From positions 558,001 to 622,000 of the forward strand of contig OZ237746.1 of the NCBI GenBank assembly GCA_965178125.1: DNA of 64,000 bases, read 5' to 3'. Below, piece after piece: positions 12,444 through 52,620 of the stretch. The translations under genes and the position numbers were made by a program. The notes below the pieces were generated by a model. That model was given only the letters and a program-made list of their open reading frames with translations, had not been told where the DNA came from and searched no databases. Each line of letters opens with the position of its first letter. Position 1 is the first letter of the stretch. The stretch comes from Bilabrum cf. latius. Lineage: Eukaryota.

Positions 12444-13754
12444 ATGCAGATCGCTCAAACAGGACTTTTATGTGCATCCATTCGGTGCATCATTGCATCA
12501 TCCGGCCAGAATGCGTCTGATGTCGTACAGAAGCCGACTGAGAGCGAAACGAAGGTGTTTCGCCCGCGGACGTTCGGATCCGGCTACTAGGTCGAGATAT
12601 CCACGGATGAGTTTGAGCTGCTGAACCACACCTTATCTGCAGATGCTACGGCAGGGGTACTCTCGCATTTCTGGATGACGGGTTCAAACAGCGAGCTGGT
12701 GGATTCGGCAATCGTATCACTCTACGTCGACGGGGAAGCAGCTCCCAGCATCCGCACCACGCTCTCAATGGCGTGCGGATAGGGATACCCCGATGTGTAG
12801 GCATCAACATTTCCGCCCCAGGGCCTCTTTGCTGCTGGAAGTCGCTTTGGCAAGTCAGCAGCGATTGGCGGCTGGCATTTCGAGCATCCCGTGCCGTTCT
12901 ACCGTTCGTTGCGAGTGACGGTACGCGTGCAGCAAGGTTCAATGCACGCTTGGGCTCTGGTGCGTGGTCGTGAATCAACTGGTAATTACTGTCCGGTGCA
13001 GCTTCCATCCGGGGCCCAGCTGCCGCTCGGCACCAAGATGCAGCTGCAGCAGCTGCACAACCAGACCTTCCAGCCCCTCTCGTTCGTCCCAATAGCGAAG
13101 GTTCCCCAGGGACTGGCCGGGCTTCTGTACATGACCGTGATTGCCACGTCTGCATCCCACGCGGGCAACTACATCGAGGGCTGCTTCCACCTGTTTCCAT
13201 CGCATGACGCGGCCTGGCCGGGGATCGTGGTGGGCACCGGCGTGGAGGACTTCTACTCGAGCTCGTGAGTCGGTCGATCTGATTGATAGATTGATAGATT
13301 GATTGATTGGTGTCTTTGGAATAGGGAGGACGTGTACTGGCTTGATAGCTTGCAGCGATTGCTCCGGCTTTTGCCGCCGCAGCCTCTCGCGTTGCCTGCC
13401 TAATCGATTCGATGTTCCGAATGCGAATGCTACTCGCGCAACTTACCGCCTCCACCCTTTCGCAGGTATAGATTCTGTGCTCACGGCGACTCGGATCCCC
13501 CTTGCACGTTCGCGCACCCCGACTCTGGCATGCTCGCCTTTAGCGCCGACGCGGCGAACGATCGGGAGAGGATCAGCGCTTACCGCGTGCTGGTGGACGA
13601 GGAGGTGGGGTTCATGGACGGGGGGTCGCTGCAGTGGAGGGTGGGGGACGTGAAGGACAAGTGCCTGGCAAACGGTACTTCGCCGGCCATTGGACACCCC
13701 ACGGCAACTAATGTGACTTCGGACGCGTGGGTGCTGGTGTGGCCAAACACCTGA
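12444..13754 (+). CDS. Secreted DUF2961 (GH172-like) family protein
   Basis: Signal-like N-terminus; motifs GVLSHFWMT, LYVDGEAAPSI, PVPFYRSLRVT, GTGVEDFYSSSY. In-frame TAGs at 12588, 12780, 12798. Intron 13265-13465. Ends TGA. Confidence 0.75.
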
Positions 13755-14037
13755 GCCGATACTGCATTGGTGCGGTGGAACAGGTGTACCGTGCCGGGTG
13801 GACTACAGCATCCACCCGGTCCTGTGGAAGTGCTCAGGGTGCCATGAAACCAGATTGAACGAATATATGGATAGATCTATCCATACGGCTGTCTAGTTCG
13901 CATTCTACGTCAGGTGCAATTAGAGCGTCCAAGGGCCATGCCGCACGGGCATCTGATCCACACTGGCGGTGGGTCGGCGCAATCCCGCCATTGTAGACAG
14001 ACTGCACGAGAGTCGCGCCGAGCCACCCCTTCACAGC

Positions 14038-16153
14038 TCAGCCCGACTCGCTCACGCCGTCCCACAGCTCGCCCTCCTGCGCACGGGCCGCTTCGAGCGC
14101 CTCCTTGTAGATGGTGGCCACGGGCCCGAACTCCTCCTTGGGCCTCCTCCAGAAATCCACCACCCCCTTGTGGTTCTCGCCGCCGGGGCGCCCGCTCTTG
14201 GTGCTGATGTAGGCGCAGTTGCACGGCTTGGACAGGTCAGTGCATGGTGGGCTGTAGTCGCAGGACCCGGCAGACTGAGCCCCCACGTTGGCCTTGATAT
14301 CGTTGAACTGCCACACCGTCAGGGCGCTCACGTTGGGGTTCTTGGCCGCGAACTGGGCCTCTGTGGGCACGATGAGCTTCTGGTAGGCCTGGGACCAGCG
14401 GGGGAAGGGCTTGGTCGTGTCGTTGTGCCACTCGTAGATGCCGGCGGCGCCCGTCTCCGAGATCTGGAAGCTCTTGTCGGGGTAGTTGCTGTGCGCCCAG
14501 CTGACGTGCTGCTCCCACTTCGTAACCGTGTTGTTCGGGCAATCGTTCAGCTCGCCATACCAGCACGGGTAGTCGCTGCGAAGAAAGACCCAAAAGAGCA
14601 GGGCGGTACAGAACATAAGGAGCAACAAGCACTTGCATCGATGGACTAGTAGGCCTTCATGGAGGCGCGACGGGTAGAGGACCGGGGGCCAGTCATCGGC
14701 CCTCTTGCTTGCCTGTCTCTCACTTGAACGAGATGTGGTCCACGATGGCGAGGCACACGTCGCCCTCCTTCTTGTCGCTGGCCCACGTCACCAGGCGCCA
14801 GGGGGGCCTCTCCTGCCCCTTCACAAGGGTGGATCGCTGCCTCACCGCGTTGGCGGACTGGTTGTACCCCGGGCATGCGTCCTTGTCGTTGCTTGGGCCC
14901 TCGTTGTTGAAGCCGTGCACGATGATGGAGGGGTGGTTGATCGAAGTCTCCACCATCTCTGCCATTTGCTGCAGCTGGTACTTCATGAAATAAGGGTCTT
15001 GCAGGTCCTTGAGCTGCACTCCGGGACCCAGTGCTTCCTCCCAAATGACGATGCCCTCCTCGTCCAGCATGTCCAGCCAGCGCTGGTCCTGGGGGTAATG
15101 CGCCCCGCGGATGTAGTTGAGGTTGAGCTGCTTGATGAGCGCCATGTCAGACTTGAGCTGGTCCATGGTGAGTGCAGACCCCGTGTCGGGCCACATGGTG
15201 TGACGATTGAAGCCCAGCAGCTTGGTGACCTCCCCGTTGATGGCCAGCCGAGACACACCGTCTTGCTGCTGCTCCACGGAAACCAGCCGATGCCCCGTGC
15301 GGACCGTAATCGAGTCGGCCAGATTCGCCACGGTAGCCTTAATCTCGTACAGGTTGGGCTTCCCGATGGCCCACAGCTTGATGTCGGCGGGCAGCTTGAA
15401 CGACGGCACAACGGCCGACCCGTCCTCGCCCAACGTCACGGACAGGGACTGCGACGCGCCGCCGTTGATGGAGAGGCTCACGTCCATCTTGGTGCCTTGC
15501 TTGGCGCCCTTCCCGCCGAACACGAATCGAAGGTCCGACGTGTACGGCTGCGACTTGACCTGCACGGGCGCGACCTCGAGGCGCTGGAGGTACGCGCCGG
15601 CGTTGCTCGCTTCCGCGGACAGCTCGCGCACGACGACGTTGCGCGTGATACCACCGTAATTGTAGAAATCGCCACCGGTATGCACTGGGGCTCGTGTCGA
15701 GTTAAACTCGTTGTTGGCGAGAACCAATATTTCGCGAGTGGTCTTCGAGCTCGAGACGGGAATGTCCAGCCAGAACGGAGCGTAGCCGCCGGCGCGATGA
15801 TCCCCGATGTCTGAGCCATCCACGAATACCCTGCAGTAGAATGAGCATGCAGCGAAGAGGACGCGGGCGGATCGCCCTGCGGTCACGTCCACGGTCGTCC
15901 GGTAGAACCCAGTGCCTTTCGCGCCAACCACACCGGGCACCGCCACGTCAAAAGCAGACGGAACAGTAGTTGTTTTGGGCGTGGAAACATCCTAGTAGGG
16001 AATGGTCACGGGGTCGATCGTGTGCTCTTCTGCGAAGCCAAAACTCCACTACCCATCGAGCACAGAAATTTTGGAGTCTAAATAGTGGGGGTAGAACGGC
16101 ATCTGTGCATGGGCCCACGCAGCAATTGTGGCAATTGCCAAAATAGATCTCAT
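14038..16153 (-). CDS. Secreted glycoside hydrolase family 2 (beta-glucuronidase/galactosidase-like)
   Basis: Signal peptide MRSILAIATIAAWAHA; LDG-[TAG]-WSF; GFNRH, IRGAHYP, NHPSII..FNNE, SFNDYPCWY, ISETGA. TAGs at 16049 and 15992. Intron 14576-14723. Ends TGA. Confidence 0.9.
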
Positions 16154-17896: not shown

Positions 17897-18079
17897 GGTG
17901 GGGAGTGAAACATTCGGCTACGGATTTTGCTTGTAAGGTTCAATTTGGGACCGACATTCCAGCTCCGAATATCGTGTGACGTAAACCAGATACTTGCTGG
18001 GGTCATCGGCGCTGCGATTTGAGGGCCATTCAAAGGCGGTGTTGACATAGTTTAGAATAGTATCTGATATTTTACCTCT

Positions 18080-20101: not shown

Positions 20102-20406
20102 GTTGGCCCGTGGGATGCAGTGGGTGGTTGTGAGGGTTGTGGTATGGTTTGTGAAGGGGTGCGAGCGAGGGGGGGAAAGGTGCTGGGCGGCCCTTGCAAC
20201 ATCCTGTAGTAGTGACCAGGCTTGCCCCTGTGAACGTGCAGTATGGTGGCTGCTGCACTTGGGTGTGTATCTGTGCGTGGATGAATGCATGTTATTGAAA
20301 GGGTATACGCGTGGGTATCAAGAGCCTCACCCGCAGCACAGCGCACCGACAATCGTCACGCGCGGCCCAGCTCAAATTCGGGAGGTTGCAGAACAGCAGT
20401 CCAGGC

Positions 20407-23283: not shown

Positions 23284-23409
23284 TGACGGCACCGCACAGT
23301 CAAAACCGCTATGCACTGCTGCATGCGCTGTGGTCACGGTGTGCATGACTCGGATTCGGAGTCATTACACCGTGCACCGCTTCTTCAGCCGCAATGTAGG
23401 ATAGATTTG

Positions 23410-25110
23410 ATGAAATTCCAAGTATACTGGTAGCGATGGTACGTACTATTCGTTCTTTCACTGCTAAGTGCGGTGCAGTCAATCGTTTGGCTCACGTTTG
23501 GCGTGATTCCGGAGGTAGCCAAAGCGGAGCTTGGGCTCACATCAGATGATGTTGACCTCCTAGCCATGTACGGCGCAATCTTTTTCTTTCCAGGCTCTTT
23601 TCTTGTCAGCGGCCGCGGTCTCCGCTTCGTTGCAATCGCATTATCGATTTGTATGATTGGATGCGCACTTTTAAGAGCGTTCGTGCATCATCCTGGCTAG
23701 GCTTGGATGCTTCATGTGGCCCACGCATTGAATGGAGTGGGTGGACCACTGGTCCTAACGCCGCCTCCATAGCTTGCTGTAGCTTGGTTTCCGACTAGCG
23801 AGCGGGCAACGGCCACGGCAATTTCGCTGATCGCGAATTCAGTTGGTAGCGCAGCTGGGTTCCTCATAGTCCCGTTCTTGACCAATCAATTGTCTTTGCA
23901 CCGAATGTTGCAAATCATTAGTTGTGTACAAGTTCTTGGCGGGGTGATGCTACTAGCATACTTCCCCGATGGCCCGCCTACCCCTCCCTCCGCCGCGGCC
24001 GCTCTTGCAGCCGATGCCGAGGCTCGAGCGGTGGCAAGAGACCTGCGGGGCGAGCAGGCGGAGACGGGTGGTGGAGGTAAGGGGGCGCTGGATGATGCAA
24101 AAATAGGCAAGTCCTACGACGGCGGTATGGGGGCTGCACTGCTGCCTGCAGACGGGCTGGAAGCAGGGTTGCTCGTTGCATCAGTGGACGAGAAGCGAGC
24201 GGCAGGCGACGGAGACATGCTGCCATCGCTGAATGGGGGAGCGCCCATCGGTACGGCAGGACCGCTTGAACCCCCCACTGAGGCAGGGCGGCAAGCGGCG
24301 CTAGACACGGCCGAGGCCGAGGCCATCATTGCGGGCCAGAGCTCGTCTCGGCTGGACGCGTGCCAGGTGCTGCGGCTGTGGTGGGTGCTGCTGTCGCGTA
24401 GGAATTTCCTGCTGATCGCGCTTGCCATGGGTATTTCAACGGGTTTCTACTCGGCGTGGACGTCGCTGCTTGGCGTGCTGCTTGGGGGTGCCCCCTGGCA
24501 TTTCGACCAGAGCGCGGCTGTGCACGGGGCCGGGAGCCTGGCGCACTCGGTGGCTTGGCTCGGGTTTCTGTCTACGATCACGGGCTGCATGGGCGGTCTG
24601 TTGGTAGGTCCGTGGCTGGACTGGACGCGGTCGTACCGCTTCACGATGCTGTTGTTTTTCTTTTTGAGCTCTGTTGCGTTCGTGGTGTTCGCGCTGATCG
24701 TGTTCGAGGTTGTGCCCGGCACGCACGCGGCTGTGGTAGCTCTGGCGAGCGTGGGGTCTTTCTTTCTGAGCGCGGTGACGCCCGCGGCTGTGGAGCTGGT
24801 GGCCGAGCTGACGCATCCGGTGCCTGAGAGCGTGTCGAACGGGTTGATCCAGGTGATATTCAACGCCGGCACGCTGCTGATGCAGCTGGTGGGCCTGACG
24901 GGCATCTTGGCCAAAGAGCCGGCGGTGCTGAACGGGCTGTTGCCGGCCGCGACGGTGGCGTGCGGGCTGATGACTCTGGGGACGAGCCAGAGCCTGCGTC
25001 GGCTGGCGCTGGACGAGAGAGCGGAAGGGAAGACGGGATCGGATCATGATGGGCTGGAAGGTGGCAAGGCTGCCTCTGCTGGGAGAGCCGGAGGTGGGGA
25101 GAAGCTCTGA
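23410..25110 (+). CDS. MFS transporter, FLVCR/SLC49-like (copy 1)
   Basis: VYW-[TAG]-RWYVL, AWFPTSERATATAIS, ELVAELTHPVPES; about 12 TM segments. TAGs at 23431, 23698, 23770. Ends TGA. Confidence 0.85.
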
Positions 25111-25307
25111 ACGTGTCTCTCACGAATCGTTCCACATTCATCTGTTCCTACTATCTTCCACCGATCGTCGCGATCCCAACGATCGGATTACAACCGACGT
25201 AGACCACCAAGCTTCTCCATTGCCATCGCCGCGCACTGCGGCCCGGGGCGCCGGCGGTTCCGCAACTGCTCGGCGAATAGATCGCCATTAGATCCTGCAA
25301 AGATCCC

Positions 25308-27105
25308 ATGTCTAGGTCAAGTGGATTGCGTTTTGATGGCCGCGTCGCTATTATAACTGGGGCTGGTCGGGGCCTTGGGAGGGCGTATGCATTGCTTCTA
25401 GCATCCAAAGGCGCGTAGGTAAGCTTGGCCCAATCACTCAATCTGGGATTCTAGACCCTACAGCTACTCATTAAAAAGCCAGATATCATGGACTATGTTC
25501 TATTTGAGCGCAGGTCGTTGTAAATGATCTAGGAGGTCCTGTTGGGGGCGATGCGGGCCACGACGTTCGTGTTGCAGATCAAGTTGTTGCTGAGATCCGC
25601 AAGCTGGGCGGCCGAGCTGTAGCAGACTACAACTCCGTCACAGATGGGGAAGCCATTATAAAAACAGCGATGGATGCGTTCGGGAGAGTCGACATAGTCA
25701 TTTGCAATGCTGGCATTATCCGGGATGTCAGCTTTCACAAGATGAAGGAATCCGATTGGCAATCAGTGATGGCAGTACATTTGGAAGGGGCGTTTAAGGT
25801 AGTTAGGGCTGCTTGGAACCCGATGAGGGAGCAGCGGTACGGTCGTGTGATCTTGACGTCGTCTGCCGCTGGTCTCTACGGGAACTTTGGGCAGGTGAAT
25901 TACGCCGCCGCCAAGCTTGCACTGGTAAGATCAACTCAGTTTACTGGCCGATCCTGCTGAAATGCGCTAATGTCATTTATTATGCACTCGGTGCTACGGT
26001 CAAGACCGTTCCCCTGCGTCCCAACGCACCTCCCGCACAACCCATTTCTCATCCCGTCGCTCTGCAGGTGGGCCTTGCTCGCACTCTCGCCATCGAGGGC
26101 CAGCGGAGGGGCATCAACGTGAACGCCGTGGCCCCCGTGGCAGGCACGCGCATCACAGCCACCGTGCTCCCCGAGGACCTGCTGCAGGCTCTCAAGCCAG
26201 AGGCAGCGGCACCCGTGGTGGGCTGGCTCTGCCACGAGGACTGCGACACGACCGGGGCGGTGATCGAGACGGGGGCCGGGTGGTCTGGTGCCCTGAGGGT
26301 GGAGCGGTCTCCGGGAGCTTTCTTCTCCGATGCCGTCGGGGGCTCGCAGGCGGGAGCGGATCCCGAGTACGTGAGGCGGGAGTTCACGCCCGAGAAGGTG
26401 CTGCGGAAGTGGGGCGAGGTCATGGATTTCGGCTCCGGGTCGGCTCGATCCCCAGAGCACCCTAGCAGCAACCAGGACGCGATCATGAAGATCATGGAGC
26501 TCGTGCAGCAGCTGCCAGAGAAGCCTGCTGATGCGGCCACGGCGAGTGGTGCGAGTGCAGGCAGGGCGGATGCGAGCACCACAGTATCCTGCAGCAGCAG
26601 CAGCAGCAGCGGTGGTGACGAAGCTCACGTTGCTTCCTCAGCCTCTACTTCCTCAGCCTCTGCATCGTCAGCTGATGGTGACTCGGAGCCGTTCGAGTGG
26701 AGCGCAGCAGCAGAAGGCATGGCCTCTGCGGCTGTCTTCAAGGTGCTGCGGGGTGCCATGGCGGTGCACGGGGAGGACTTGAGGAACAAGGTGGACAGCC
26801 GGATCATGTTTCGGATCAAGCCAGACGGGAGGTGGCTCCTCGACCTCAAGAGTAGAGCGCCCCCTGCCGAGGGAACAAGCGGGCCTCACTGGCGGCTGGT
26901 GGAAGTGCCAGAGGGCAGCAAGCCCGAGGTTGATGTGGTACTGGCGGTGAAGGACGAGGACTTCATGGCCCTCGTGGCGGGCACGTCATCCCCTCAGGGC
27001 CTGTGGATGCAGGGCAAGCTCAAGGTCAAGGGCAGCCTGCAGGTGGCGGGCAGGCTGGCCCCAGTGTTCAAGGCCGCAAAGAAGTTCAGCACGGCCAAAC
27101 TCTGA
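25308..27105 (+). CDS. Peroxisomal 3-hydroxyacyl-CoA dehydrogenase SDR + SCP2 (MFE-2/DHS-28-like, no hydratase domain)
   Basis: [48 protein letters not shown]-terminal SCP2 and PTS1 AKL. TAG 25416-25418 is the last codon of exon 1. Introns 25419-25513 and 25925-26067. Confidence 0.9.
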
Positions 27106-27166
27106 GTGTCTCCTTGATTTAAGGTTAACTTAGCCTTATTTTGGCACTTCCAGCACTACTCCATAA

Positions 27167-30100
27167 CCGGCGCCGTGAAAGGTCCGCCATTATTGGCATT
27201 CCGAGTCCCAAAATCGCGACCATCGTGCCTTTAGGCTCCCATTGCTGAGAACTGGACCAATTTCTTGGGTGAATTTACATTGCAAAAATATCTTATGTAA
27301 CATTTAAATGTAATGCAGTCCCAACGGAGCCATGCAATTCGCAGCATTAGACTGAAAACGAGTCGTGCTTGCGACCACCATTTTTGGCGACCACCCCCAG
27401 CCCAAGATTTTACTCGCTGGCAAGGGGTGCCAGATGCACGCACCGTGTGCCGCCAAAAAAGCTTTTATTTGGTTTCTGTTGGTATTTAGTAGTTAAAAAC
27501 ATATTTGACAACATGTTATCAGGTCACTAGGCTCATTCATTAGCAATCCAGCGAAATTTGGCTGCCATTCCAACACACGTCGGTTCAAACGGTTCCAAAA
27601 TTTGCAGGGCATTTATACCTTAGCGCAATAGACTTTTAACACACTGGCACTACTGTTGAGGTAAACGGGTATTAAATACAATATCATGTGGAGGATTACG
27701 TCTACGTTTGCGAGAACAACGAGTGGGAGGCGATAAAGTCGCTCCAGCGGCGCGTCCGAAGTTGGGTCTCGGGGTGCAAGTGCCCCTGGTGGGAGTGCCT
27801 CGTCTCGGCGTCACGAGCAGAAATCCGCCAAACTCAGGATCATCGATCAAAGTGAGTACGGTATTGTTATGGTTGGTGGAATTGCATGGGCTCTAGCCGG
27901 CTAGTTTCGGGGTACCGTACAATCTGCCGCAGAGGCACCGGAAGCCACGAATGTGGCACTCATTGACAGTATCCATGCATCCGTGGTATGCTTGACGAGG
28001 TGTTGGTTGAATAATCATTTCATGGTGATGTGGACGAGCTTAAATAATTCTACAGAGGTATAATAGGGCCACAATCGGGCTTGCGTCCTGTGCAAAATTG
28101 GCCATGCACGGTGTTGCTGCAAGGCCACTGATATCAGCCTTCATCGCTTATTTGTGCTTAGCCTTCGCAGAAGCATCTCAGTCAATCCCAAAATTCTCAT
28201 TGGAGTCTTGTAAACCTATATCTAGCGTTTCGGTTGCTAGCAAGTAGTCAGGAAGCAGCCCGTCCCATGCGGCCAGTTCGAGCCGACGCGCTGGGTTCAA
28301 GCGTAAACGGCAAGAGGACAATGCAAATAAATCGACAAAAGATGATGATTTACGTGATTTGTTGGGCGAAGCATAGGCCAGCGATGATGATATGGACTAT
28401 GTCGGCGATTCAGACGAGGACGAGCAGGTATCCAGTCGGTCTGCAACTTTGAGCCGGCCTCAAGTGCAGCATCGTAGGAGGCAGTAGGCTCACCAAGCAA
28501 AGCGGCGCAGAATAGAGCAATATGAAAGTATGTTTCCTATGGACAAAATTGCATCGTTGGTTGACGAGCCTGAATATAGGTACTTCGTGAATGACCGGGT
28601 TGTGATTGGCGGTGATGGGATCCCGATCGCTCGCACAGCGGCTACTTATGTGGCTGCTACTGAGTATGTCAAAGGCTGGATGACGGCTCATCATGAACAA
28701 CCAATATCTCCAATACGCATTCTGTGCTCGCTGGTGCCTCTCGATATTGCATTTCCGTGGCGAGGCACTGCAGCGGCAGAGGTAGCTGGCCAGGCAGCCG
28801 GCCAGCCGGCAGCGACCAACCAATGGACATGCCAGTTGCGATGATGTTCCTGGCCGTGGCATTGACTCTGTCTCTCATCCGACCCCGGATACCTTTAGAA
28901 TAACTGCAATCAAAGTAGTTCCTGGTGCGCATGAAAGACGATATCGTAGTGCAAGACTGGAATCGGTTCCATCGAAACTTGTCTTTCGCCGGGAGGTTGC
29001 AGGAGGCTCCGGCACCCCTGCTGGCGGAGGAGCGCGCCACAATGAGGCTAGGGAGTGTGGGCAGTCCTCGCGAGCGGGTACTCATAGAATATCTATCAGG
29101 CATGCTAGATACAGTTTCAGAGTACTTTCGTGCGGCTACTTCGAGCCCAAAGAGCATCGCCGTTGATGAGATGATGGTGATGGCGAACGGCCGAAATCGG
29201 GCATGTGTCATCATGCCGAACAAGCCCACATCGCATGGCTTTAAGCTATGGGCAGCTGCACGAAAAGACGGGTATGGGTACCATTTGGATCTAGCAACAT
29301 CTGTTGCCGATGATACACGATAGTACAGGGGGAAGGCTGAGTACTCGTATAAGGTAGCAACCGGTAGCGGTGCCGCTGCCGGGTAGCTGACCCGGATGGA
29401 CCTGCAAACAGCAGCTGTTGCGTCAAAGGCAATGGACAAAAACTTGAATGGGGGCCTTCTAGCGGTGGATAACTACTTTAAATCGGCTCCACTGTGTGAT
29501 TGGGCCACCAGCAAAGGCCTTCGGGTTGTTGGCACGCTTCGCCAAGGCAAAGTGAGCGGTGAGCTGTACCACGCGATTGGCAAGCTGAACAGACGAACCC
29601 CAGGCGAACGCGGGCAGGCTGTGAAGCGCGCTCCTCCTGGGTCCAGCAAAGTCTCTTCATGTCATGTAATAGCTGATGATGTTTTTGATGCGAGTGAGCT
29701 TCCTGCGGGATCGCTGCTGGCCGAAGAGGACCTTGGCAGTCGGGGCCTGTTGAGCCCTGGCCAGACAGTAGCCTTTGACTCGCCAGTTGATTCAGCTTCT
29801 GGGATGCAAGTTTTTGGATACTGTGCCCGCGCACCATTTCTTATGGCTTCTAACATTCCTACGAAGTACTTTGTTCGGTTGGTAAAGAAGCTACGGAAAG
29901 ATGGTGGCGAACTGAGTGTGGTGAACGCGCCCCTCGTGTCCGTCCTCTACAACAAGTACATGGGGGGTGTGCATCTAGCTGACAAGTTCCGGACGCAACT
30001 TTCGCTAACAAATGCATTCCAGGGAGAGAATAGGGCATACTTAAGAGTGTGGGAAGGTTTAATGGAGCAAGTTATCGTCAATACGTACATCATCTGGGTC

Positions 30101-31062
30101 AACTTGGAGGCACGTCGACTGCTACGCCACGGACCCAGTCGTCGGCAAGCTGCTGGAGCTAGCAACGAATCCGTTCAGGAACAGGTTTAGCACATGGTGC
30201 TGCATCGACAAGCTCATGTTATGTTTGTGCAGCTGTTGTATGACGAATTGATGCGTCCTTACCGACATGCACGTGCAGGAACTCGCGGTGCTGCAACCTC
30301 AGCTGGGATGCGTGCGGAGGCGACCCCCGGGAACCTTGGATGTAGAAAGCAGCACACGGTAGCTACGCTGCTGGGCTCGCTCCATTTGATTGGAAAGGAG
30401 TAGTTACAAGCAGGACTGATTAAATTTCTCAGTAGCGGACGATCAAAGAACCGTCGAGTGGGGTGCAGCGCCAAGTGCAAGGACTCCAGATGCAGCAAGC
30501 GGCAGCATCATTAGTCAGTTTCTTCCTATAAAGTGTGTTCACGCTGCTGCAAGTTCATTTGTGGGGATTGTAAAGAATCTATGTATCATCTGTAAACAGG
30601 ATTTGGCTGTGATGTGGATATAGTTGATATTAATGCCAAGTAAGTGGATGCGCAAGAATCGGGTCACGAAGCACGTCATTCATGGCAGGTCCACATTCGA
30701 TTCAATATCTTGTAAACCGTTCGGTAACTTTTTTGCGCTAAGACTTATATATAATATAACTACCAATTAATTCAAAAAAGCTTGTTTATTTCTCAAGCAT
30801 GCCTGCTTGGACAAACTTCTGCAGTATCAAAGTAGCCCTTCCTGAAAATCGAGCGTATGGTTTCATGACCACCAAGTATACTATTCTCGCAAGCTCATCA
30901 ATGAGTAACTCTCGCAATCGATAGTTAACTTATACAATTTTCAATATTTTGATATTATTTTAGGATTACTTGAATGGTACGCGAGAATCGGTAAGGTGAA
31001 CTCATGGTACCGATATCGGCGATACCGGTCGGTCGGCCAAATCCGACCTTTCACGGCGCCGG
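27167..31062 (+). mobile_element. piggyBac-like DNA transposon (3.9 kb), degenerate
   Basis: 18-bp TIRs CCGGCGCCGTGAAAGGTC at 27167-27184 and 31045-31062, flanked by the 4-bp direct repeat ATAA (27163-27166, 31063-31066). Contains a piggyBac transposase. Confidence 0.9.
28234..30595 (+). pseudogene. piggyBac-family DDE transposase with C-terminal Cys-rich domain
   Basis: SIAVDEMM, NKPTSHGFKLW, AVDNYF, VVGTLR, YNKYMGGV(H)LAD and CxxC motifs. About 8 in-frame TAGs. Frameshift near 28750, internal TAA at 28901, terminal TAA 30593-30595. 5' end uncertain. Confidence 0.85.
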
Positions 31063-31081
31063 ATAAGTAAATAAATTTTGT

Positions 31082-32821
31082 TCAGTTGATGCCAAGCGTC
31101 GTTCCATCCAGGACCTACGAGGGTAGCTTCTCCCCACCTCCGGCTCTCCCAGCAGAGGCAGCCTTGCCACCTTCCAGCCCATCATGATCCGATCCCGTCT
31201 TCCCTTCCGCTCTCTCGTCCAGCGCCAGCCGACGCAGGCTCTGGCTCGTCCCCAGAGTCATCAGCCCGCACGCCACCGTCGCGGCCGGCAACAGCCCGTT
31301 CAGCACCGCCGGCTCTTTGGCCAAGATGCCCGTCAGGCCCACCAGCTGCATCAGCAGCGTGCCGGCGTTGAATATCACCTGGATCAACCCGTTCGACACG
31401 CTCTCAGGCACCGGGTGCGTCAGCTCGGCCACCAGCTCCACAGCCGCGGGCGTCACCGCGCTCAGAAAGAAAGACCCCACGCTCGCCAGAGCTACCACAG
31501 CCGCGTGCGTGCCGGGCACAACCTCGAACACGATCAGCGCGAACACCACGAACGCAACAGAGCTCAAAAAGAAAAACAACAGCATCGTGAAGCGGTACGA
31601 CCGCGTCCAGTCCAGCCACGGACCTACCAACAGACCGCCCATGCAGCCCGTGATCGTAGACAGAAACCCGAGCCAAGCCACCGAGTGCGCCAGGCTCCCG
31701 GCCCCGTGCACAGCCGCGCTCTGGTCGAAATGCCAGGGGGCACCCCCAAGCAGCACGCCAAGCAGCGACGTCCACGCCGAGTAGAAACCCGTTGAAATAC
31801 CCATGGCAAGCGCGATCAGCAGGAAATTCCTACGCGACAGCAGCACCCACCACAGCCGCAGCACCTGGCACGCGTCCAGCCGAGACGAGCTCTGGCCCGC
31901 AATGATGGCCTCGGCCTCGGCCGTGTCTAGCGCCGCTTGCCGCCCTGCCTCAGTGGGGGGCTCAGCTGCTCCTACAGTACCGATGGGCGCTCCCCCATTC
32001 AGCGATGGCAGCATGTCTCCGTCGCCTGCCGCTCGCTTCTCGTCCACTGATGCAACGAGCAACCCTGCTTCCAGCCCGTCTGCAGGCAGCAGTGCAGCCC
32101 CCATACCGCCGTCGTAGGACTTGCCTATTTTTGCATCATCCAGCGCCCCCTTACCTCCACCACCCGTCTCCGCCTGCTCGCCCCGCAGGTCTCTTGCCAC
32201 CGCTCGAGCCTCGGCATCGGCTGCAAGAGCAGCCGCGGCGGAGGGAGGGGTAGGCGGGCCTTCGGGAAAATAAACGAGCAGCAACAGTCCTGCAGCAGCC
32301 TATACACCGCTAATAATCTAGAGCATTCTTTCAATAGACAGCTGATTCGTCAAAAATGGCACGAGTAAGAACCCGACAGCCGATCCAACGGAGTTAGCAA
32401 TGAGAGAGATTGCCGTAGCAGTAGCGCGCTCGCCGGATGGAAACCAAGCAAGCGCTAGCTACGGCGGCGGCGTTAGGACCAGCGGTCCACCGAGCCCATT
32501 GATTGCATGTGCAACGTGAATCATCCAGACCTGACTTGGCTCGTGCACGAATGCGCGCAGCAGCGCACAGGCAACCATGCAGGCAGCTAGGGATATCGCT
32601 ACGAAGCGAAGACCGCGACCACTTGCAAGGAAAACCCCTGGGAAAAAGAAAATTGGTCCATAGGCTGCAATGATATCAACATCATTAGCAGTGAGTCCCA
32701 GCTCGGACTTTGCAGCGTCAGGAATCACTCCAAACGTCAGCCACACTGTACACTGTATCGTGCTAAGGAGTGAAAACAACAACAAAACATACCAGCGCTA
32801 CCAGTACACAGTATACTTCAT
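31082..32821 (-). CDS. MFS transporter, FLVCR/SLC49-like (copy 2, inverted paralog)
   Basis: Colinear with copy 1. TAGs near 32798 and at 32459, 32318, 32300, 31115. Ends TGA at 31082. Start could be 32863. Confidence 0.85.
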
Positions 32822-38725: not shown

Positions 38726-40225
38726 ATGGCATCAGTTGCCGGATCGGTTGCAGCGAGCTCCGCGTCTGGAGAGCGAGATGAATCGGGATGGAGGATTGAA
38801 GAGTCTGTGACGGCCAAGCGCACCAACAACCCCATTCGGAAAATCGTGGACGGTATTAAGATGCCTAAGGATGATGGATCCAAACCGATCATTCCCCTGT
38901 CCTTGGGTGAGGCAGCCTGTTTGGCCGAATGTAGACATGTCCCGAAGGGAACTCTGAGAAGATGCACGAGGCTACTCTCGACCGTCGTGCTTTAAGTTGG
39001 CACTTGGACGAGCAAGTCGTTCTGTTTGATGTATATGCACGATTGTGATCGCATCTTATGCCTGCTACGACTCAACATTTCGCTAATATGCCTTCTGGCC
39101 GCAGGTGATCCGACTGTATTCGGCAACTTCAAAACCCCTGAGTTCTTCGTCAAGACGATCGAGGAGAACCTCAAGTCTTACAAGCACAACGGATACGTCC
39201 ACTCGGCTGGCACACCTGCTGCCCGAAAAGCAGTGGCCGAGCGATTCTCTAGCCCAGGTGCAGAGATCACTGCTGAGGACGTCGTCATCGCTTGCGGCTG
39301 CTCGGGCGCTCTGGACCTGGCCATAACCGCCCTTTGCAACGCCGGGGAGACACTGCTTGTGCCCAGACCGGGCTTCGCGCTATATCAAACGCTTGCAGAG
39401 AGCAAGGGCATCTGCGTCGAGTACTACGACCTTGACTCGACAAAGAGCTGGGAGGTGGACCTGGCGAGCCTGGAGGCGGCCATCAAGAAGAGCAAGGGGC
39501 CAGCAGCCATCCTCGTCAACAACCCGAGCAACCCCTGCGGCTCGGTGTACTCGAAGGAGCACCTGAAGGCCATCATCGCCGTGGCGGAGGCAGCCCGGCT
39601 GCCCATCATCGCTGACGAGATCTACCGGAACATGGTGTTCAGCACGGCCAAGTTCGTGCCCATCGCCGGCCTTTCAAGCGAGGTGCCAGTCCTTTCCGTT
39701 GGCGGTATTGCAAAGGAGTTTCTCGTACCAGGATGGAGAGTTGGCTGGGTGCTTGTCCACGACAAGAAGGGGCGCTTTGAAAAGGTGCGAGCTGGGCTTT
39801 ACCGGCTCAGCTAGCTCATCATTGGATCGTGTTCTCTCATTCAGTCAGCTCTTCCAGAGTTGCTGTCCCCTACCACAGAAGAGCATAAAGTGGCACTCGC
39901 AGACTTCACTGCGAGCACCATCAAGTAGCTAGAAGACAACGCTTCCTTTACAACTGAAAGGCTTACTGGCCTGGAGGGCGTTGAGGTTATTGTTCCACAA
40001 GGCGCCATGTACGTGATGATTGGAATTGACTCTTCGAAATTCAAGGACATCGCCGACGACATGGAGTTCACTCAGAAGCTGCTCGATGAAGAGCACGTGT
40101 TTATGTTGCCCGGGTCCTGCTTCGGCATGAAGGGGTTTGCACGTATCGTTTTCTCAGCGCCGAAAGACAAACTAAGCGATGCATACGACAGAATCGAGCG
40201 ATTCTGCAAAGCTCATGCAAAGTAA
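38726..40225 (+). CDS. TAT: Tyrosine aminotransferase (class I PLP)
   Basis: IPLSLGDPT, NNPSNPCGSVY, ADEIY, GGIAKEFLVPGWRVGW, RLS-[TAG]-LIIG, PQGAMY. TAGs at 39812 and 39926. Intron 38907-39104. Ends TAA. Confidence 0.93.
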
Positions 40226-44902: not shown

Positions 44903-47900
44903 ATGCAAGCCAAAGCCGCATGGGTTCAGTTCTATCCTCCAGAGAAGGATTTTCCGGGCCATAGAGAATGCCACAGGATGCTCAGCATTTGTGACAAGGT
45001 TTGGCTCTTCGGTGGCAACGATAAGACGATGTAGACCAACGACGTCCACGTTTTCGATGCTGGTAAGTGATTGCATTGCTTCACTTTAGGGTGCAGGCGT
45101 CGTGATTGCCTTTTGGTTTGCGAACCCGTTCGCACCGCGTGCCAAATCAAACCCTTGCTCGCCAATCACCCGTGCGGTACCGTCGCGGTGTTTGTCTGGT
45201 GATAAGCTCATATTACGACGCAGAGTCCTTATCATGGACAAAAGTGGAAGTATCGGGGCCAAAACCGAAGCCTAGATCCGCCAACGCCGCCACCGCATGG
45301 GGTTCCAAAATACTCGTCTCCGGCGGATGGGACGGACAGGTCGAACTGAACGACCTTCACGTATTTGACACCAGTGAGCTATATAAAGGTCGTCATAAAG
45401 CTACATATTCTGTTGATTAGCGCCTTTTGCTTCTCGCTGCGTGGCATGGCTAGGTCGTGCGTCAACCACCCCGCCGTGACACACCACAGACACCCCCTGC
45501 CACGAGCAATCCTCCCCCCCGCAGAGACAGGCAAGTGGAGCGAAATTATAACCTGGGGCGACCCTCCGTGCATCCCCTGCCCCCGGCACTTCCACTCCAT
45601 CGCCGCCCTCGGAGACCTCCTCCTCGTGTTCGGGGGATACACGGGCCGGAACTGGCTCAATGACCTCCACTGCCTGCACTTGCCAACACGTAAATGGATC
45701 CCGGTGCAATTCATGAGGCCCGCCCAAGCCAACCAGACGCTGGCACAGCCGCGAGGTGCCCAGCCGCAGCCACAGCAAGGCCCGGGTGGTGAAGCAGGTG
45801 CAGGCTCTGCCCAGTCCGCCCCACCACCCAGCGAGACTGGCGCTGCCATCGGCGCTTAGACTCATGGACAGGCAGGCGGCCAAGAACGGACGGCTGCACT
45901 CTCTAACGGTCAAGCTCAATAGCAGCAGCAGCAGCAGTAGCAGCAGCCGCAGGCCACGATGCAGGACCAGGACGACAGCGAGGACAGCTCTGACGCGAGC
46001 GAGGACTCGAGCGACGGCGAGGACGACGACGGGGACATGGCGATCGAGCGGCAGGCGAGGGCCTTGGCCTCCTTGAAGCGGTGGAAGCAGCGCTGGAGGC
46101 CCAGTCGCAGGGCCTCGGCCACTCTGGAGGCGGTGGAGGAGCAGGGCATGGTCTTCCTGCTGGGGGGGTATGACGGGCACTACTTTCTGTCGGACCTGTG
46201 GGCCATCGAGCCAGAGATGGTGATGCCGCCGAGCGGGTCTGGACCTGGGTCCAGGTCTTCTGACCCTGCCTCCATCTCTGCGTCTTCCTCGTCTTCCTCC
46301 TCGTCGGCTGCTGGTGCTGCTGCTTCTGCTGCTAGTGTCGATGCTGGCAGCAGCATGAGCACGGGGAAGACTAGAGCCCCCATCGCGATTCGCGCCCACC
46401 TCAACCGCATTGGGGGCGGGAGGCTGGGACCCAAGCGCAACCCGCTCGACAGAACCGACCACCGGGACCTCCTGCACGGCGACTGGCCACCTCCACGCTC
46501 CGGGCACGCGTGCACAGTGTCTGACGGCCTCATGTACGTGGTGGGCGGCCGCCACAGCGGGGGCCGGCGCAACGATCTGTTCGTGTACGACCCCAAGACC
46601 GAGAAGTGGACCCACGTGCCCCCCGTATCTGACAAGAGCGTGCCCAAGGAGAGGAAGACCCACAGCATCGCAGTGTCCCAGGGCTGGCTCTTTCTGTTCG
46701 GGGGCCACGACGGCAAGTTCTGGAGGCAGGACCACTGGATGGTCAACCTGGGGGGCATCCAGAGGGCCGTGGCGGGGGCACAGGCCATCAAGGTGCCCCG
46801 CTCCACGATCTCAACGGACATGGCCAGGCTGCTGCCCTTTGAGGCCAACGACTCGGCGGCCATGGAGCGGCTGAGGGACGCAGAGGACGAGCTGCACGAG
46901 CTGGTGCGGATCGTGGAGGAGCGGCAGGGGAGCTCTCTGGGGCCTATCCAGGGGCATGGGACGGAAAGAGAAAGGGGAGGGCACAGGACGAAAGTGCCCG
47001 GAACCGGCCTGTCAGTCGGCATGGAGCAGGAGGACCAGGGGGCTACCATGGGCCTGGGGACAGGAATGGGGCGTCCGCCCCCCGGTGCACAGACCCCCAC
47101 AGGGGGGAGCCGACCCCTCCCCTCGTCCGCGGCCTCCTCGTCCTCGACCGTGTCTGACACCGGCTCGGCCCATGGGAGCGCGTCTGCCTCCTCTGCCGTT
47201 GCGCCCTTCCACATCGCGAGGAGCCCGCTCTCAAGGCGGGGCAGGCGGGGGTCGGCTTCCTCGACCTAGGGCTAGGGCTAGGGCTAGGGCTAGGGCTCGT
47301 CTTCTTCTGCGGGTCTCTCCCTGCCCGGGGCACAGGCGCACCTCCAGGCTGTCCCGTCGTCGTCCTCTTCGACCTCGACTTCGACACGAGCATCGTCGCC
47401 CTCGCAGGCCACGGGCACTGCAGGCCAAGGTGGACTGCCCGCCGGGGCAGCCGCTCCAGGAGGGCAGGCCCCGCCTGGCAGCAGCGAGGGTGAGAGCGTC
47501 GCTCGTCACACAGCCAACGCCCCACTAGCAGCGTCTCGCGCGGTGGCTGCGTTGGCCAGCGGCGAATCCGTGCTGCATGGGCTCATTGGTCCACAGCAGC
47601 CGGCCATGTCGGGCAGCGGGGGCGAGCCAGAGATCCAGTGCCCCAACCTCTGCATCCGGCCAGACGCGGTATGCCTCGAGTCGGGCGAGGATCTGGTTGT
47701 GGCAGCTGTCAGGCTGGGCATATCAACGGCACCTGCGGCCACTGGAGTGGTGCGCCGTTGGCTGGAGGCAGTCGTGGGGATGCGCTCCTGCTGCAAGGGC
47801 TAGGCTTCCGGCCACAGGGAACACGGAGCAGGCACAGACGACTCTGTGCCTGCCGCTCCCGACGTCCTGGTTCGCGTGGCGGGATGCGACGTGGCTCTCC

Positions 47901-49144
47901 ACTGGATGGTCCTCGCTCTCAGGTGCGAGTTCTTCAGGACTGCCCACGCGTGGCAAGCTCGGGGAGGGCGGGCACCGTCGCCCATGCAGGCCATGGAGAG
48001 GGGCGGCTCGCCTCCGACCAGCTCCTCTGGCGGTGCCAGCTCTAGCGGCGGCGTGGTCACCTCAGGGCAGGACCCCTCGCGGCTCCCCGTGGTGGAGCTC
48101 CCAGGCACCCGATTGTCCGCCTTCCTCATCGTGGCGAGGTACCTCTACTGCGACTCGCTGCCCACGGACGATGCCCTGCTCGAGCACTCGGGGGAGCTGC
48201 TGGAGCTCGCAGGGAGGCTTGGCCTGCACCGCCTGCAGCGCCACGTGGAGGGGTTTCTCTCGCACCGCATGCACTGTGACAACGCCGCCGACCTGCTGAG
48301 CCTGGCAGACGACGTCGGTGCCGACGAGCTCAAGGAGCGGGCCATCCGCTGCATCCTGGGCGCGTTCGACCACGTCGTTATGCTGCCGAGCTTCGTCTGC
48401 CTGCGTGCTGACCTCCTTAAGGAAGTTCTATTCCGCAAGCAAGGGGGCATGCGGCCCGTGGTGCGGCCGGCCTCGTCCTCGGGAAGCGCGGCCCTTGCTG
48501 CCAGCGAAGGCAGCAAGGGTGCCGGAACCGCTACTGGACTAGCCGGTATCCACGGCTCGACTGCAGCCTCGATGAGCTCCTCTCTGGTGCCCGGGCTGCG
48601 GTGGGAGGACGTGGTGGCTGCGGACCGCGCGATCGGGGCACTGCACATGGATGGCTCCCTGGCTGGGTCCCGCGGTCCTTCGTCGGTAGCGTCTGGAGGG
48701 GCGCTGTCGGGCCGCAAGCGCGGCAGGGACGAGGCCGAAATGAGCACCGACCCAGTGCAGGAGCTGCCTGCCGAGCTCGGCAGCGGCGGCGGTCAGTCGG
48801 CGCACCAGCGGCTGCTGTAGAGAGCGCAGGTGGCCGCGACCAGGGCTGCGATCGGTGCTGGGCTACGGGAGGAGGCAGTCGGGTAGATCGTGGCGAGACT
48901 CATCGCAGAGCTGGCGCCGCAGCTTGTGGGTGATGGAGGCGACCAGCACGAGCAGGTCCCTGGCCACGGAGCCAGGAAGAGGAGGAGGGGTCCGGATGGG
49001 AACAGGGTCCGCGCAGCTGGCGTTTCTGCGGGTTCACAGGCGTCGGCAGAGGGAGACCACCCCAACGAGGAAGGCAGCAACGGTTCTGGAGAGCGGGGCG
49101 AGGGGAATGGTGGTGGAAGTGCTCGCCCAGGCTCGAGTGTGTGA
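44903..49144 (+). CDS. Kelch-repeat + BTB/BACK protein (LZTR1-like architecture) with low-complexity inserts
   Basis: Kelch repeats (LFGGN, VSGGWDG, VFGGY, PRSGH, LFGGHDG) and BTB (DVLVRV..ALHWMVLALRCEFF, RYLYCD). Introns 45063-45223 and 45374-45524. About 12 in-frame TAGs. Ends TGA. Confidence 0.85.
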
Positions 49145-49339: not shown

Positions 49340-50508
49340 TCAAGTGCTCGACACTGCTCGCCTCCGTTTGTTTACACCCACGGCGCTTTCAGAGCTGCGA
49401 GATCGTTTGGAGCCTATCTCACCGCCTCCGTCTGGCGCCAATCCAGCAGAACGCTCCGCTTTTGCGTCAGATTGCAACCCACCCGTGGATGCTTGTCCTG
49501 TCGATACCTCACCACGTGCACTGCCTCCACTCCCGCTGCTGCTATTGCCAAGCGAAGAGCCTGCGTCGCCCTGGCTGGTGCCGCTGTCGTCTTCACTCCC
49601 ACTGTTGCGAGCGGTCGCACGAAGACCCCACTTGTCGCCATTGCGAGGTCTTGTGGCCCCGTCTTGCGCTGGCTCAGCTCCCTTGTGTTCGGAGCTGTTC
49701 GTAGGAGTACCATCAGACCCGGAGGAATCATCGCTATCCTGTCCCATATTGCCGGAGTCCTGGCTGCCTCCTTCCGGCGAATCACCAGACGGAGAATCGC
49801 CCGAAGCGCCACCGCTGTCACCTGGAGCATCAAGGCTAGATCGCCCCCCCACGTCTGACGACGATGCCGCTGGCGGAGGTGCCTAAACGGACTATTTGCC
49901 GAGGTTGGCCGCTGCACCTCCATCACACCCTGTTTCGCATTCTTGGTCTGAGCCACGATGGGCGGCATCGGTTCCCGTGGCGGCACCATGCCGAGTGGTG
50001 TCCGAGCTACGTAGTGCGTGCTGATACCTTCTGGCTTGTTGCACCGCGTGTCGGTCCTCCTGGGCCTTTGAAACAACCTCGGGCTGCTCGTGCAGCAGAA
50101 TGCGGCGGTGTCTCCTCTCTCTCCGTTGCGCAGCTTCACGCCGATGCACGTCGGCCATACTGGTGTACACCGGGGCATCCACACCGGCTGCATGGGCCTG
50201 GATGTCGAACCCGTGAGATCGAAGCAGCGGCGCATTCAAGCTGAATCGACCTGTTGGCGGCCACGCTCCCGCCACTGCGCGGACATTCCGTGGCGACCTT
50301 CCGTCATGCTGCGTCTCCTGCAGCAGCCACTAGCCGTACTGGTCTCGAAGGGCTTGCACCTTGCTGTCCACACGGCGCCCTTCAGCAGAAGCAGACGACT
50401 AACCAGCAGTATTGGGTGTGGGGGCTACCATCGAGTGCTTTGGGGTCGCCGCCATGGCAGCCCGTGCGGCCTTCACCAGCACTGCATAGGTTGAGGTGGC
50501 AGTGCTCG

Positions 50509-50542
<34 letters not shown>

Positions 50543-52620
50543 ATTTGCAGCCTTTGATTGAGCATCTTGACGGTTTGCGCCGCTCTCGTGGAGAGGGACC
50601 AGCCCTGGCACTCTCGCACTGGAGGGCTCCTGCACAAACCGCACGCGCCTCGACTGCGAGTCCGTCTCGCCCGCATGGTGCTCCTCGTTTTCCGCATGGG
50701 AGTGTTGCGCCTGCCCATCGGCGTGCCCCATAGCACGCGCCGCGTCCAGCTGCCGTGCTGCCTCGGGGGGCATCTCACCATTGCCAACCCCACCCATTTC
50801 ACCATTCAGGTCCCCAACTTGATTCTCAGGCGCGCCAGCCCTTGTGCGTCCCTCTGTGCTTGGTGCAGCCTCCATCGCTTGGACATGCTCCGCTGCCTCC
50901 CTGGCCTTCTAGATGGCCTCCTGCAGCGACAGCCCATCCCTGAGCACACCCTCCTCGAAGGCCCGGAGCTCCTCGCGGCTCATGGACAGGTGGCTGGGCA
51001 CCGACCTGAGGCTCGGCATGGTGTCCAGCAGCAGCTCTCTCGCCTGCAGGGCCACGTGGCGCAGCTTATCCACCTGTCGCAGGCCCATACACTGCAGCTT
51101 CCTCAGCCGCTGTTCCCTGGAAGACAGATCGGATTGGCTGAGCGTCCCACCCGCGGTCTCGCCGCTGTCATCACCCCCTGCTCCCGATCGCTTGACCCGA
51201 TCGATCTGCTGCTGTACCCCGTGTACTGCTCTCAGCAGGCCATCCGCCTCTGCACTGGCCAGCTGAGCCGCCCGTATGGCGTGCTGCCTCAGCTAGGCGG
51301 AAGACACACCGGGCAGCGACTGGGACTGCACGGCTTCATTCCACGCGAGCTTGGCACCATCGCTCCCGCTCCCGCTCCCGCTCCCGCTCCCGGCACCACT
51401 GCTGCTGCTATGGGTAGACAGCGGAGGGGGTGCTAGCGAGTTCGGCTGGGCGCTTGCGCTCGTACCGCATGCCAGGTGTGCTTTGGACTAGACGGGGCTT
51501 GTGCCGGCAGGCGGAGCGAACCAGAACTGGGGACTTCTCCCGCTCGAGTGGGGGTGGAGAGAGGCCGATGCGCTAGAGGCAGCAGCATGAGCTGGCACGG
51601 CTTGCGCGGGTGCCCCAGCCCCCTGCTACTGCTGCTGCTGCTGAGTGTGAGCGAGCAGTAGTTCGGTGGTTTGGGGATCAAGATTCCACACGCCGACCCC
51701 TCCAGGATGCTGGATCGGACGTTGTAGCTTCATGACAGAGCCGAATGTGAGGCGCCATCCCCCTGTACTGCTTGTTGGCTATTGATCCCACGAGGAGATC
51801 TGCTTGCCGTGTGTCTCCTGGCTCGGCGTTGCATGCTGAACTTGTGCAAAACCAAGGATCTGGCCACACATACTCTTCAGTCTGCTAATATCAGATATCC
51901 TCCATGTTTCAAGCGCATATTGCACCGCGCCTGGAGACATTCGCTCGAATCTGTCCGCGAACACAGCCACCCAACTTCCAATGAGACTCTCGATCGACTT
52001 GAAGTTTACAATCCCCGCATTCTGCGATATGGTGCGTACAAACATGCAAATACTAATGCTGCACTTTCGATCACAGGGACAGAAAGGAGGTGCACGAAAA
52101 GACCAAAGGATGGGGCGTTGTCACACCGACGCTACCATCACGGGCTGCTCAAAACTTGGTCAAATCAAACAACGAATCACAAGAATACGTCGAAACATGC
52201 AACGCAGTGGCATTCGGGGGCGATTGCCCCGGAGAAATTCTCTTGGTGGCCCACAGCGGTGCCCAAAAATCGGAGACATGCAACACATCCACTCCACTAC
52301 CTCACTGTGTACCCTTCAATGATGCCACTGGCATACGGCTGCTGCAAAGTGATAGCATATAATTGCACATCTCGCACTGCTAGCATGCTGGACTCGGCTG
52401 GACGCCTGCTTCCAGCCCATTGACCGATCGAACCGTCCATCAACGAATGTAGACTGCCCTGACAGGTATAAATGCCAACGCTCAAGAGGTGCTTGCAGCG
52501 GCAGAAGTTCTTGTATTTTTTACAGAACTTATTTTCTGTATTATACCTTGGCTGTACGGCGCAATCTGGTAAGAGGTAGGGCGTATTGGATTCCGGCGCG
52601 TGCAGGTGAAGTGATGACTG
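49340..52620 (-). CDS. ASCH-like domain protein with long low-complexity C-terminus (5' end unresolved)
   Basis: AITLQQPYASGIIEG, GSWVAVFA, GQILGFAQV, KLQRPIQHPGGVGVWNL resemble ASCH motifs. Intron 52022-52305. One frame runs from 52021 to TGA 49340 through 9 TAGs. Confidence 0.6.

Follow-up and report, generated by a model that had tools for sequence, protein, structure and literature searches.

We analysed a stretch of 64,000 nucleotides of Bilabrum cf. latius DNA (GenBank assembly GCA_965178125.1, contig OZ237746.1, positions 558,001 to 622,000 of the forward strand), hereafter called the window. It carries two genes for transporters of the major facilitator superfamily (MFS), one on each strand, and our subject is the meaning of the TAG codons that lie in frame in both (Table 1). 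The gene limits proposed in an initial annotation of the sequence fit their ATG starts and TGA stops. In a repeat search, the two copies emerged as the arms of an inverted repeat of 1685 nt, 89% complementary. The Pfam MFS_1 match extends across both six-helix halves (residues 59-523 of the 599-residue translation of the open reading frame, ORF), and an exhaustive protein search returned 2849 homologues at E<=0.001. The best solved relatives of both paralogs are FLVCR1 and FLVCR2 (E 2e-22 to 7e-20), FLVCR1 being aligned over residues 8-203 and 333-483. The paralogs resemble these choline/ethanolamine (heme) transporters in the MFS_1 domain, both halves of which are matched, but similarity is low, the window proteins have a low-complexity central loop of about 120 residues, and no substrate can be inferred. 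The label FLVCR-like stands for this similarity to solved structures.

Besides the genes of Table 1, the window encodes a NOX/ferric reductase, a cytochrome-b5-fused desaturase, JmjC and VIT-VWA proteins, the phosphatase PP1 and Gar1. Its GC content varies between 52 and 66% (about 60% overall).

Table 1. Features of the window (positions count from its first letter; for reverse-strand codons the top base is given; L001 is a syntenic metagenome contig described in the text)
Feature	Position	Strand	Remarks
MFS (FLVCR-like) transporter gene, copy 1	23410..25110	+	ATG 23410, TGA 25108-25110; Pfam MFS_1 E 7e-18
Copy 1, in-frame TAG codons	23431, 23698, 23770	+	codons checked
MFS transporter gene, copy 2	31082..32821	-	ATG 32821-32819, TGA 31084-31082; Pfam MFS_1 E 1.5e-16
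Copy 2, in-frame TAG codons	32800, 32461, 32320, 32302, 31117	-	codons checked
Inverted-repeat arm 1	23422..25106		diverged block to ~23968; near-identical from 23965
Inverted-repeat arm 2	31125..32809		partner of arm 1
Spacer between MFS copies	25300..30595	+	SCP2-domain gene, piggyBac-type transposase ORF
DUF2961 gene (+) and GH2 glycosidase gene (-)	12444..16153	+ / -	TAGs 12588, 12780, 12798; 16051, 15994; Pfam matches
Proteasome ATPase Rpt5, TAG codon	33793..33795	+	exon ORF 33481-34542; inside conserved KQIQELVEA motif
Tyrosine aminotransferase (TAT), last exon	39080..40225	+	TAGs 39812, 39926; TAA 40223-40225
Kelch-repeat gene	45365..49144	+	11 in-frame TAGs
901-codon gene, no assigned family	49340..52045	-	9 in-frame TAGs, one (51628-51626) in a poly-Q run
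NADPH-cytochrome P450 reductase (CPR) gene	52855..55194	-	TAG 52917-52915; TGA stop
DnaJ (DUF1977) gene	56111..57628	+	4 in-frame TAGs; TAG 57206 faces CAA in the L001 ortholog

The initial annotation had read TAG as a synonymous glutamine (Gln) codon on the strength of exchanges between the two MFS copies. These exchanges were verified base by base. Copy 1 has CCT GGC TAG GCT TGG (TAG at 23698-23700, codon 97) at the place of CCA AGT CAG GTC TGG in copy 2 (CAG at 32533-32531). Reciprocally, TAG stands at 32320-32318 and 32302-32300 of copy 2 (its codons 168 and 174), where copy 1 reads CAA (23911-23913 and 23929-23931), in the peptide context RMLQIISCVQ (copy 1) and RMLqIISGVq (copy 2, with q for TAG). 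Two more TAGs are common to both copies (23431/32800 and 23770/32461). In the codon alignment of the pair that the initial annotation had proposed as a check, 5/5 TAG columns therefore pair with TAG, CAG or CAA. They fall within the first 185 codons as two TAG/TAG, one TAG/CAG and two CAA/TAG columns, out of eight columns in which at least one copy carries a Gln-type codon. CAG and CAA together account for 5/185 codons of copy 1 and 3/185 codons of copy 2 in this block. From codon counts, the probability that 3/3 non-identical partners are CAG or CAA by chance is ~1e-5. An exchange between CAA and TAG takes two steps, and it is the expected outcome of the synonymous walk CAA-CAG-TAG.

The block of codons 1-185 has diverged between the copies, with 44, 17 and 115 differences at codon positions 1, 2 and 3 and 140/185 identical residues. 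The proportion of nonsynonymous differences (pN) is 0.148 and that of synonymous differences (pS) is 0.81, which is saturated. The block is thus under strong purifying selection and, as pN is low against a saturated pS, both copies have been retained as coding sequence across the TAG-bearing block. Past a sharp boundary near 23968, codons 186-566 (381 codons) show a pS of 0.019 and only 11 differing codons. The near-identity of these 3' two-thirds (23965-25106 and 31125-32266) would be most simply explained by gene conversion. The sharp boundary looks like the trace of a recent gene conversion, or of a partial duplication, between the inverted copies.

Contigs from two runs of RNA type, X6 and X7, were then compared with the window. 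These contigs skip segments of 95-201 nt that carry GT..AG on the gene strand. In the SCP2-domain gene of the spacer, joints 25416>25512 and 25923>26067 are present in both X6 and X7 and delimit two spliced introns (25417-25511 and 25924-26066); in PP1, the joints are 17142>17247 and 17532>17640. The skipped segments are therefore short spliceosomal introns, and X6 and X7 contain RNA-derived sequence. The window belongs to the nuclear genome of a GC-rich eukaryote whose introns are short and of GT-AG type. Record 27 of X7 covers 23746-24129 with 0 differences, a copy-1-specific sequence that includes TAG 23770. Record 21 of X6 (1727 nt) aligns to 23965-25106 with the bases of copy 2 at 24262, 24270 and 24816 and runs 550 nt further, as would be expected of a copy 2 transcript reaching nearly to the ATG. 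The initial annotation had noted that its reading would fall if both copies were untranscribed pseudogenes; RNA-type contigs match both of them, and the pair is under purifying selection. The spliced contigs X6-17 and X6-18, which have GT..AG and CT..AC joints, hold TAGs 12588, 12780, 12798, 15994 and 16051 with 0 differences, so that neither splicing nor editing removes these TAGs. The contigs give neither expression levels nor 3' ends.

To the scale of the whole window, TAG is a frequent codon. With TAG read through, there are 17 long ORFs with a total of 13,413 codons, 12/17 of which contain together 53 in-frame TAGs. The same 17 ORFs contain 442 CAG and 102 CAA, and TAG makes up ~9% of their Gln-type codons. 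Some of the counted TAGs are noncoding, lying upstream of true starts or in introns (CPR codons 2 and 100, PP1 codon 6, Gar1 codons 140 and 149). As the PP1 (16442-17650) and Gar1 (59294-60307) ORFs are split by introns, raw counts per maximal ORF slightly overstate coding TAGs. In the Kelch-repeat gene, TAGs 45920 and 45938 lie within a poly-Q run of CAG codons (CAA TAG CAG CAG CAG CAG CAG TAG CAG CAG), and five others form (TAG GGC)5 at 47267-47296, a (QG)n tract.

Five TAG sites could be aligned to solved homologues (one in Rpt5, two in TAT, one each in CPR and NOX), and Q was the best match at 4/5. The Rpt5 TAG at 33793 faces Q in 2/2 chains shown (8amz_M and 5vft_F). At TAT TAG 39812, the mouse and human enzymes have Q, the T. 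cruzi enzyme M. The CPR protein matches rat CPR at E 2e-113, with Q opposite the TAG. This codon (52917-52915) lies 19 codons ahead of a conserved C-terminal Trp, and a stop there would therefore cost the protein its Trp. The NOX TAG corresponds to Q in 5o0x, in a variable loop, and is unaligned in 6sz5.

Sequences of close relatives were also found in protein collections. P0006 is a 139-residue fragment from a relative; it shares 76% of its residues with copy 1, and Q occupies its MFS columns 97, 121, 168 and 174. The database fragment P0013 corresponds to copy 2 itself, truncated by a standard-code gene caller immediately ahead of TAG codon 121. P0273 and P0274, predicted fragments from relatives of the 901-codon gene, end exactly before the window TAG codons 379 and 572. 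A related-locus search with P0006 gave 597 pattern matches, 0 of them confirmed. The relatives X10 and X14, ~90-96% identical to the window, showed 0 TAG sites among the 40 differences listed of ~1240. Sequence near-identical to 12000-31050 occurs in runs labelled as several organisms, and ~90-96% relatives occur in others, including algal and protist metagenomes, which suggests that the organism is a frequent companion in cultures or samples of others.

A more diverged relative was provided by L001, an 11,360-bp metagenome contig found via the CPR of a 75% relative (P0154). A second contig, L002, carries only a distant fragment of CPR and did not enter the comparison. L001 is syntenic with 52967-60141 of the window, in inverted orientation, at 69-75% nucleotide identity, and represents a relative ~70% identical at the protein level. 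Both share the gene order Gar1, 508-codon gene, DnaJ, CPR, then the 901-codon ortholog. In L001, 26 in-frame TAGs are spread over four genes, whose stops are TAA, TGA, TGA and TAA. TAG represents 18% of Gln-type codons over these four genes, and the L001 ortholog of the 901-codon gene (7657-10578) has 15 in-frame TAGs versus 9 in the window, so that TAG usage differs between the relatives.

Codons were tallied over the four clear ortholog pairs (CPR, 508-codon gene, DnaJ and Gar1), that is 5 high-scoring segment pairs (HSPs) and 1606 aligned columns. Left out were the 901-codon pair, at 26% identity, and the matches of antisense or off-frame ORFs, such as w74 with its four TGG/TAG pairs. In this filtered set, TAG faces Q in 7/15 non-identical columns, plus one TAG/TAG; over all 24 HSPs, unfiltered, 12/39 non-identical TAG columns face CAG or CAA, plus five TAG/TAG. 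The share of columns facing Gln-type codons was 72% for CAG, 66% for CAA and 53% for TAG. With substitution frequencies taken from the same L001/window alignments, the log-likelihood of the 15 columns was -32.1 if TAG means Q, -48.4 for H, -48.8 for R, -50.2 for K and -55.3 for E, placing Gln ~16 units above any other residue. The tally favours Q, which means that window and relative have their code in common.

Under the standard code, the TAGs would be stops in decaying pseudogenes, or would be intronic or removed by RNA editing, and the public-database genes P0013, P0273 and P0274 are indeed cut at TAG by standard-code callers. Yet the TAG-bearing blocks are under purifying selection, homology is continuous through the TAGs of the essential Rpt5 and CPR, and the spliced contigs retain their TAGs while the introns lie elsewhere. 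Moreover, zero TGA or TAA accompany the 53 in-frame TAGs (12/17 ORFs) among the 13,413 codons, and L001 shows the same TAG pattern in a diverged relative. An explanation by the standard code is therefore scarcely credible.

On these data, we consider that UAG is read as Gln, with a probability of about 0.9. That TAG is a synonymous Gln codon in the MFS pair, as the initial annotation had it, agrees with the Gln-rich tracts, the solved homologues, the close relatives and the likelihoods from the syntenic contig. On this reading, the two inverted MFS genes are functional paralogs in which TAG, CAG and CAA are interchangeable. The further claim that this needs no outside database was overstated: the internal swaps are real, but there are three of them only, and outside data carry the case.

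Several observations weigh against this assignment. Apart from its three swaps, the MFS pair contributes 381 near-identical codons that are uninformative. The RNA status of X6 and X7 is inferred from the joints and not recorded, and X6 is flagged as "probably DNA". Distant MFS homologues (30-37% identical) have no Gln at the five TAG columns, where the commonest residues over 173 aligned stretches are R, A, K/L, Y and A; FLVCR1 has R, F, R and Y at the readable columns 8, 97, 121 and 168. The five columns seem simply variable across distant homologues, like control column 160, and because of this variability these homologues are uninformative on the meaning of TAG. TAT TAG 39926 faces F, F and K. 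In L001, 8/15 non-identical TAG columns are non-Gln (K twice, G twice, R twice, A and D), several of them where DnaJ is of low complexity and aligns poorly. The site of the CPR TAG is E in a 95% relative, D in the 75% relative and also E in P0155, and TAG codon 549 of the 901-codon gene corresponds to L in a 67% relative. ARAGORN scans of the window, L001 and L002 gave 0 tRNA genes each, and no eRF1 gene was seen in the window or in L001. Finally, the Gln assignment of UAG stands on sequence evidence.

The CPR and 901-codon sites are what would be expected if UAG encoded another residue (Glu, as in Blastocrithidia and some ciliates, or Leu, Ser or Lys) and if its CAG and CAA partners were ordinary replacements. 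We regard this as most improbable: the log-likelihoods of E, K and H in the 15 L001 columns are far below that of Q, the paralog swaps lead to CAG or CAA in 3/3 cases, P0006 has Q at 4/4 columns, and TAGs occur within CAG poly-Q runs and at conserved Q positions of Rpt5 and TAT.

If UAG is a Gln codon, the next question is which codons terminate translation. The long ORFs end with TGA in 15/17 cases and with TAA in 2/17 (a 1379-codon ORF and the piggyBac-type ORF). The TAT gene ends ...FCKAHAK-TAA (40223-40225), at the same point as its mouse and human counterparts; reading it past this TAA with NCBI code 6 gave AT-rich text and no further family match. CPR, NOX and Rpt5 stop at TGA, aligned with the last residues of their homologues. 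Hence, 4/4 homology-defined C-termini (CPR, NOX, Rpt5 and TAT) end in TGA or TAA, in ORFs bounded without TAG as a stop. TAA terminates three genes of the window and two of L001, a small sample.

In code 6, UAA and UAG are both Gln, and TAA would be merely rare here from GC richness. Most known lineages with UAG as Gln also reassign UAA, according to PMC11687900 and PMC5304391, and of the three stop triplets TAA is the least frequent in the window (263, vs 450 TAG and 815 TGA). As the ORFs were bounded by TAA and TGA, the absence of in-frame TAA is partly by construction, a further point for code 6. However, if TAA:TAG followed CAA:CAG (102:442), ~12 in-frame TAAs would be expected per 53 TAGs in the 13,413 codons. 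In-frame TAA read-through was needed by 0 conserved genes, CPR, NOX, the Rpt5 exon and both MFS genes being complete by homology without it. The TAA of TAT lies exactly at the ends of its homologues, and the 1379-codon ORF, the piggyBac-type ORF and 2/4 L001 orthologs also stop at TAA. We therefore hold it probable that UAA remains a dedicated stop, and code 6 is very unlikely.

UAG could also be ambiguous, being mostly Gln but able to terminate translation in certain contexts close to the 3' end of an mRNA, as in Condylostoma or karyorelictids. The 3' end of MFS copy 2 gives some room for this. Shortly ahead of the stop, the sequence of copy 2 departs from that of copy 1, and its TAG at 31117-31115 lies three codons beyond the end of copy 1, followed by 10 further codons and TGA. 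Copy 2 may thus end at either codon, and this TAG would be a natural test case for context-dependent termination. Against such ambiguity, TGA and TAA serve as dedicated stops, the homology-defined C-termini all use one of them, and the CPR TAG must be read, 19 codons before the end, to keep the terminal Trp. We consider an ambiguous UAG quite unlikely.

The surroundings of the MFS pair call for some additional remarks. Directly upstream of copy 1 lies a 990-codon Gly/Ala/Ser-rich ORF (20311-23283) with 3 TAGs, for which a family search gave no match; an RNA-type contig (X6 record 20) spans 20404-21981 of it. Between the inverted copies, the piggyBac-type transposase (28925-30595, also 28098-28844) lies in a lower-GC patch. 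Its main ORF (DDE_Tnp_1_7, 28925-30595) has 5 in-frame TAGs and a TAA stop. The segment 27264-31050 is nearly uncovered by X6 and X7, while the DNA run of a relative, X10, covers it at ~96% identity. Near the start of the window, the 1379-codon ORF (1377-5516) consists of three tandem 1305-bp copies, 98-99% identical, with zero TAG and a TAA end; its product has Cys-rich repeats and weak strictosidine-synthase-like matches in its N-terminal part.

With UAG as Gln, cytoplasmic translation would read UAG as glutamine and terminate at UGA in most genes and at UAA. By analogy with other lineages that read UAG as Gln (Panek et al. 2017, PMC5304391), such a code may require a tRNA-Gln, probably derived from tRNA-Gln(CUG), with anticodon CUA, the only one to read UAG and ignore UAA. 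It may also involve a glutaminyl-tRNA synthetase (GlnRS) accepting this tRNA-Gln(CUA), and an eRF1 whose N-terminal domain would have lost recognition of UAG, for instance through changes in its GTS motif. In Iotanema, eRF1 carries T32G, a substitution at a residue that contacts UAG. Neither the window nor L001 contains any of the three components.

A code with UAG as Gln and with UAA and UGA as stops was once listed as NCBI table 15. It has been described in Iotanema spirale (Fornicata), Protocruzia tuzeti and two phyllopharyngean ciliate lineages (PMC5304391 and PMC11687900). The code of the window is of this Iotanema type, with UAG alone reassigned, to Gln, and with UAA and UGA terminating, and it is unlike ciliate code 6. 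This sharpens the initial annotation, in which TAA had no part. The host nevertheless differs: with ~60% GC, short spliceosomal introns and stramenopiles as the best named protein matches, it is by these results neither a fornicate nor a ciliate. In I. spirale, UAA is the predominant stop (PMC5304391), whereas TGA ends 15/17 of the long ORFs in the window.

Reassignment of both UAA and UAG to Gln (code 6) is reported, in PMC11687900 and PMC5304391, from many ciliates, ulvophycean green algae, hexamitid diplomonads, Streblomastix and Amoeboaphelidium protococcarum, a parasite of algae. These systems resemble the window in the change from stop to Gln, in TAG-enriched Q-rich tracts and, by analogy, in the presumed tRNA-Gln with a mutated anticodon and altered eRF1. 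They differ from the window, in which TAA is not a sense codon, and no fungal-side or green-algal name occurs among the 120 protein matches listed. The same codon-to-residue change is found in code 15 phages (crAss-like and others, TAG as Gln; PMC9523058), but the window carries spliced genes of a cellular eukaryote, among them the housekeeping genes of Rpt5, PP1, Gar1 and CPR.

The position of the organism was examined with CPR. Bit scores were 442-474 for oomycetes, ~416-441 for brown algae, ~382-397 for diatoms and 378 for a labyrinthulomycete; they were 375-385 for plants, 384 for rat and ~195-220 for yeast. Maximum-likelihood trees with 26 other sequences, 8 of which were dropped under a slower model, placed the window apart from two plant sequences and left its position among oomycetes, ochrophytes, the labyrinthulomycete and one EukProt sequence unsettled. 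A full-text literature search, with subscription journals and supplements outside its reach, found no report of a nuclear code change in stramenopiles. UAG as Gln with UAA as a stop is a known kind of code, and the organism is a further case of it. It is possible, though we put this only tentatively and at somewhat less than even odds, that the lineage is new to the genetic-code literature, perhaps a deep stramenopile or stramenopile-like protist, with UAG as Gln ancestral to the whole clade. This proposed clade would include at least the window organism, the 90-95% identical relatives and the one ~70% identical relative.

The consequences for annotation are practical. Standard-code annotation of the organism and its relatives would be badly wrong, with 12/17 long genes of the window cut, and public protein collections already contain such TAG-ended fragments (P0013, P0273 and P0274). 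Few cases are known in which UAG changed and UAA was kept, namely Iotanema, one rhizarian (UAG as Leu), Scotinosphaera (UAG as Ser) and some ciliates, according to PMC11687900. If the lineage is indeed new and the trait ancestral to its clade, the organism would be among the few non-ciliate cases in which UAG and UAA are decoupled, and such cases bear on the mechanistic coupling of the two codons. For Iotanema, tRNA, GlnRS and eRF1 still awaited a genome (PMC5304391). Under the same condition, no earlier case would come from a genome that is GC-rich and terminates at TGA, and none would have had public genomic DNA from which tRNA-Gln(CUA) and eRF1 could be read. A further independent case would thus let tRNA-Gln(CUA), the adaptation of GlnRS and the changes in eRF1 be read directly.

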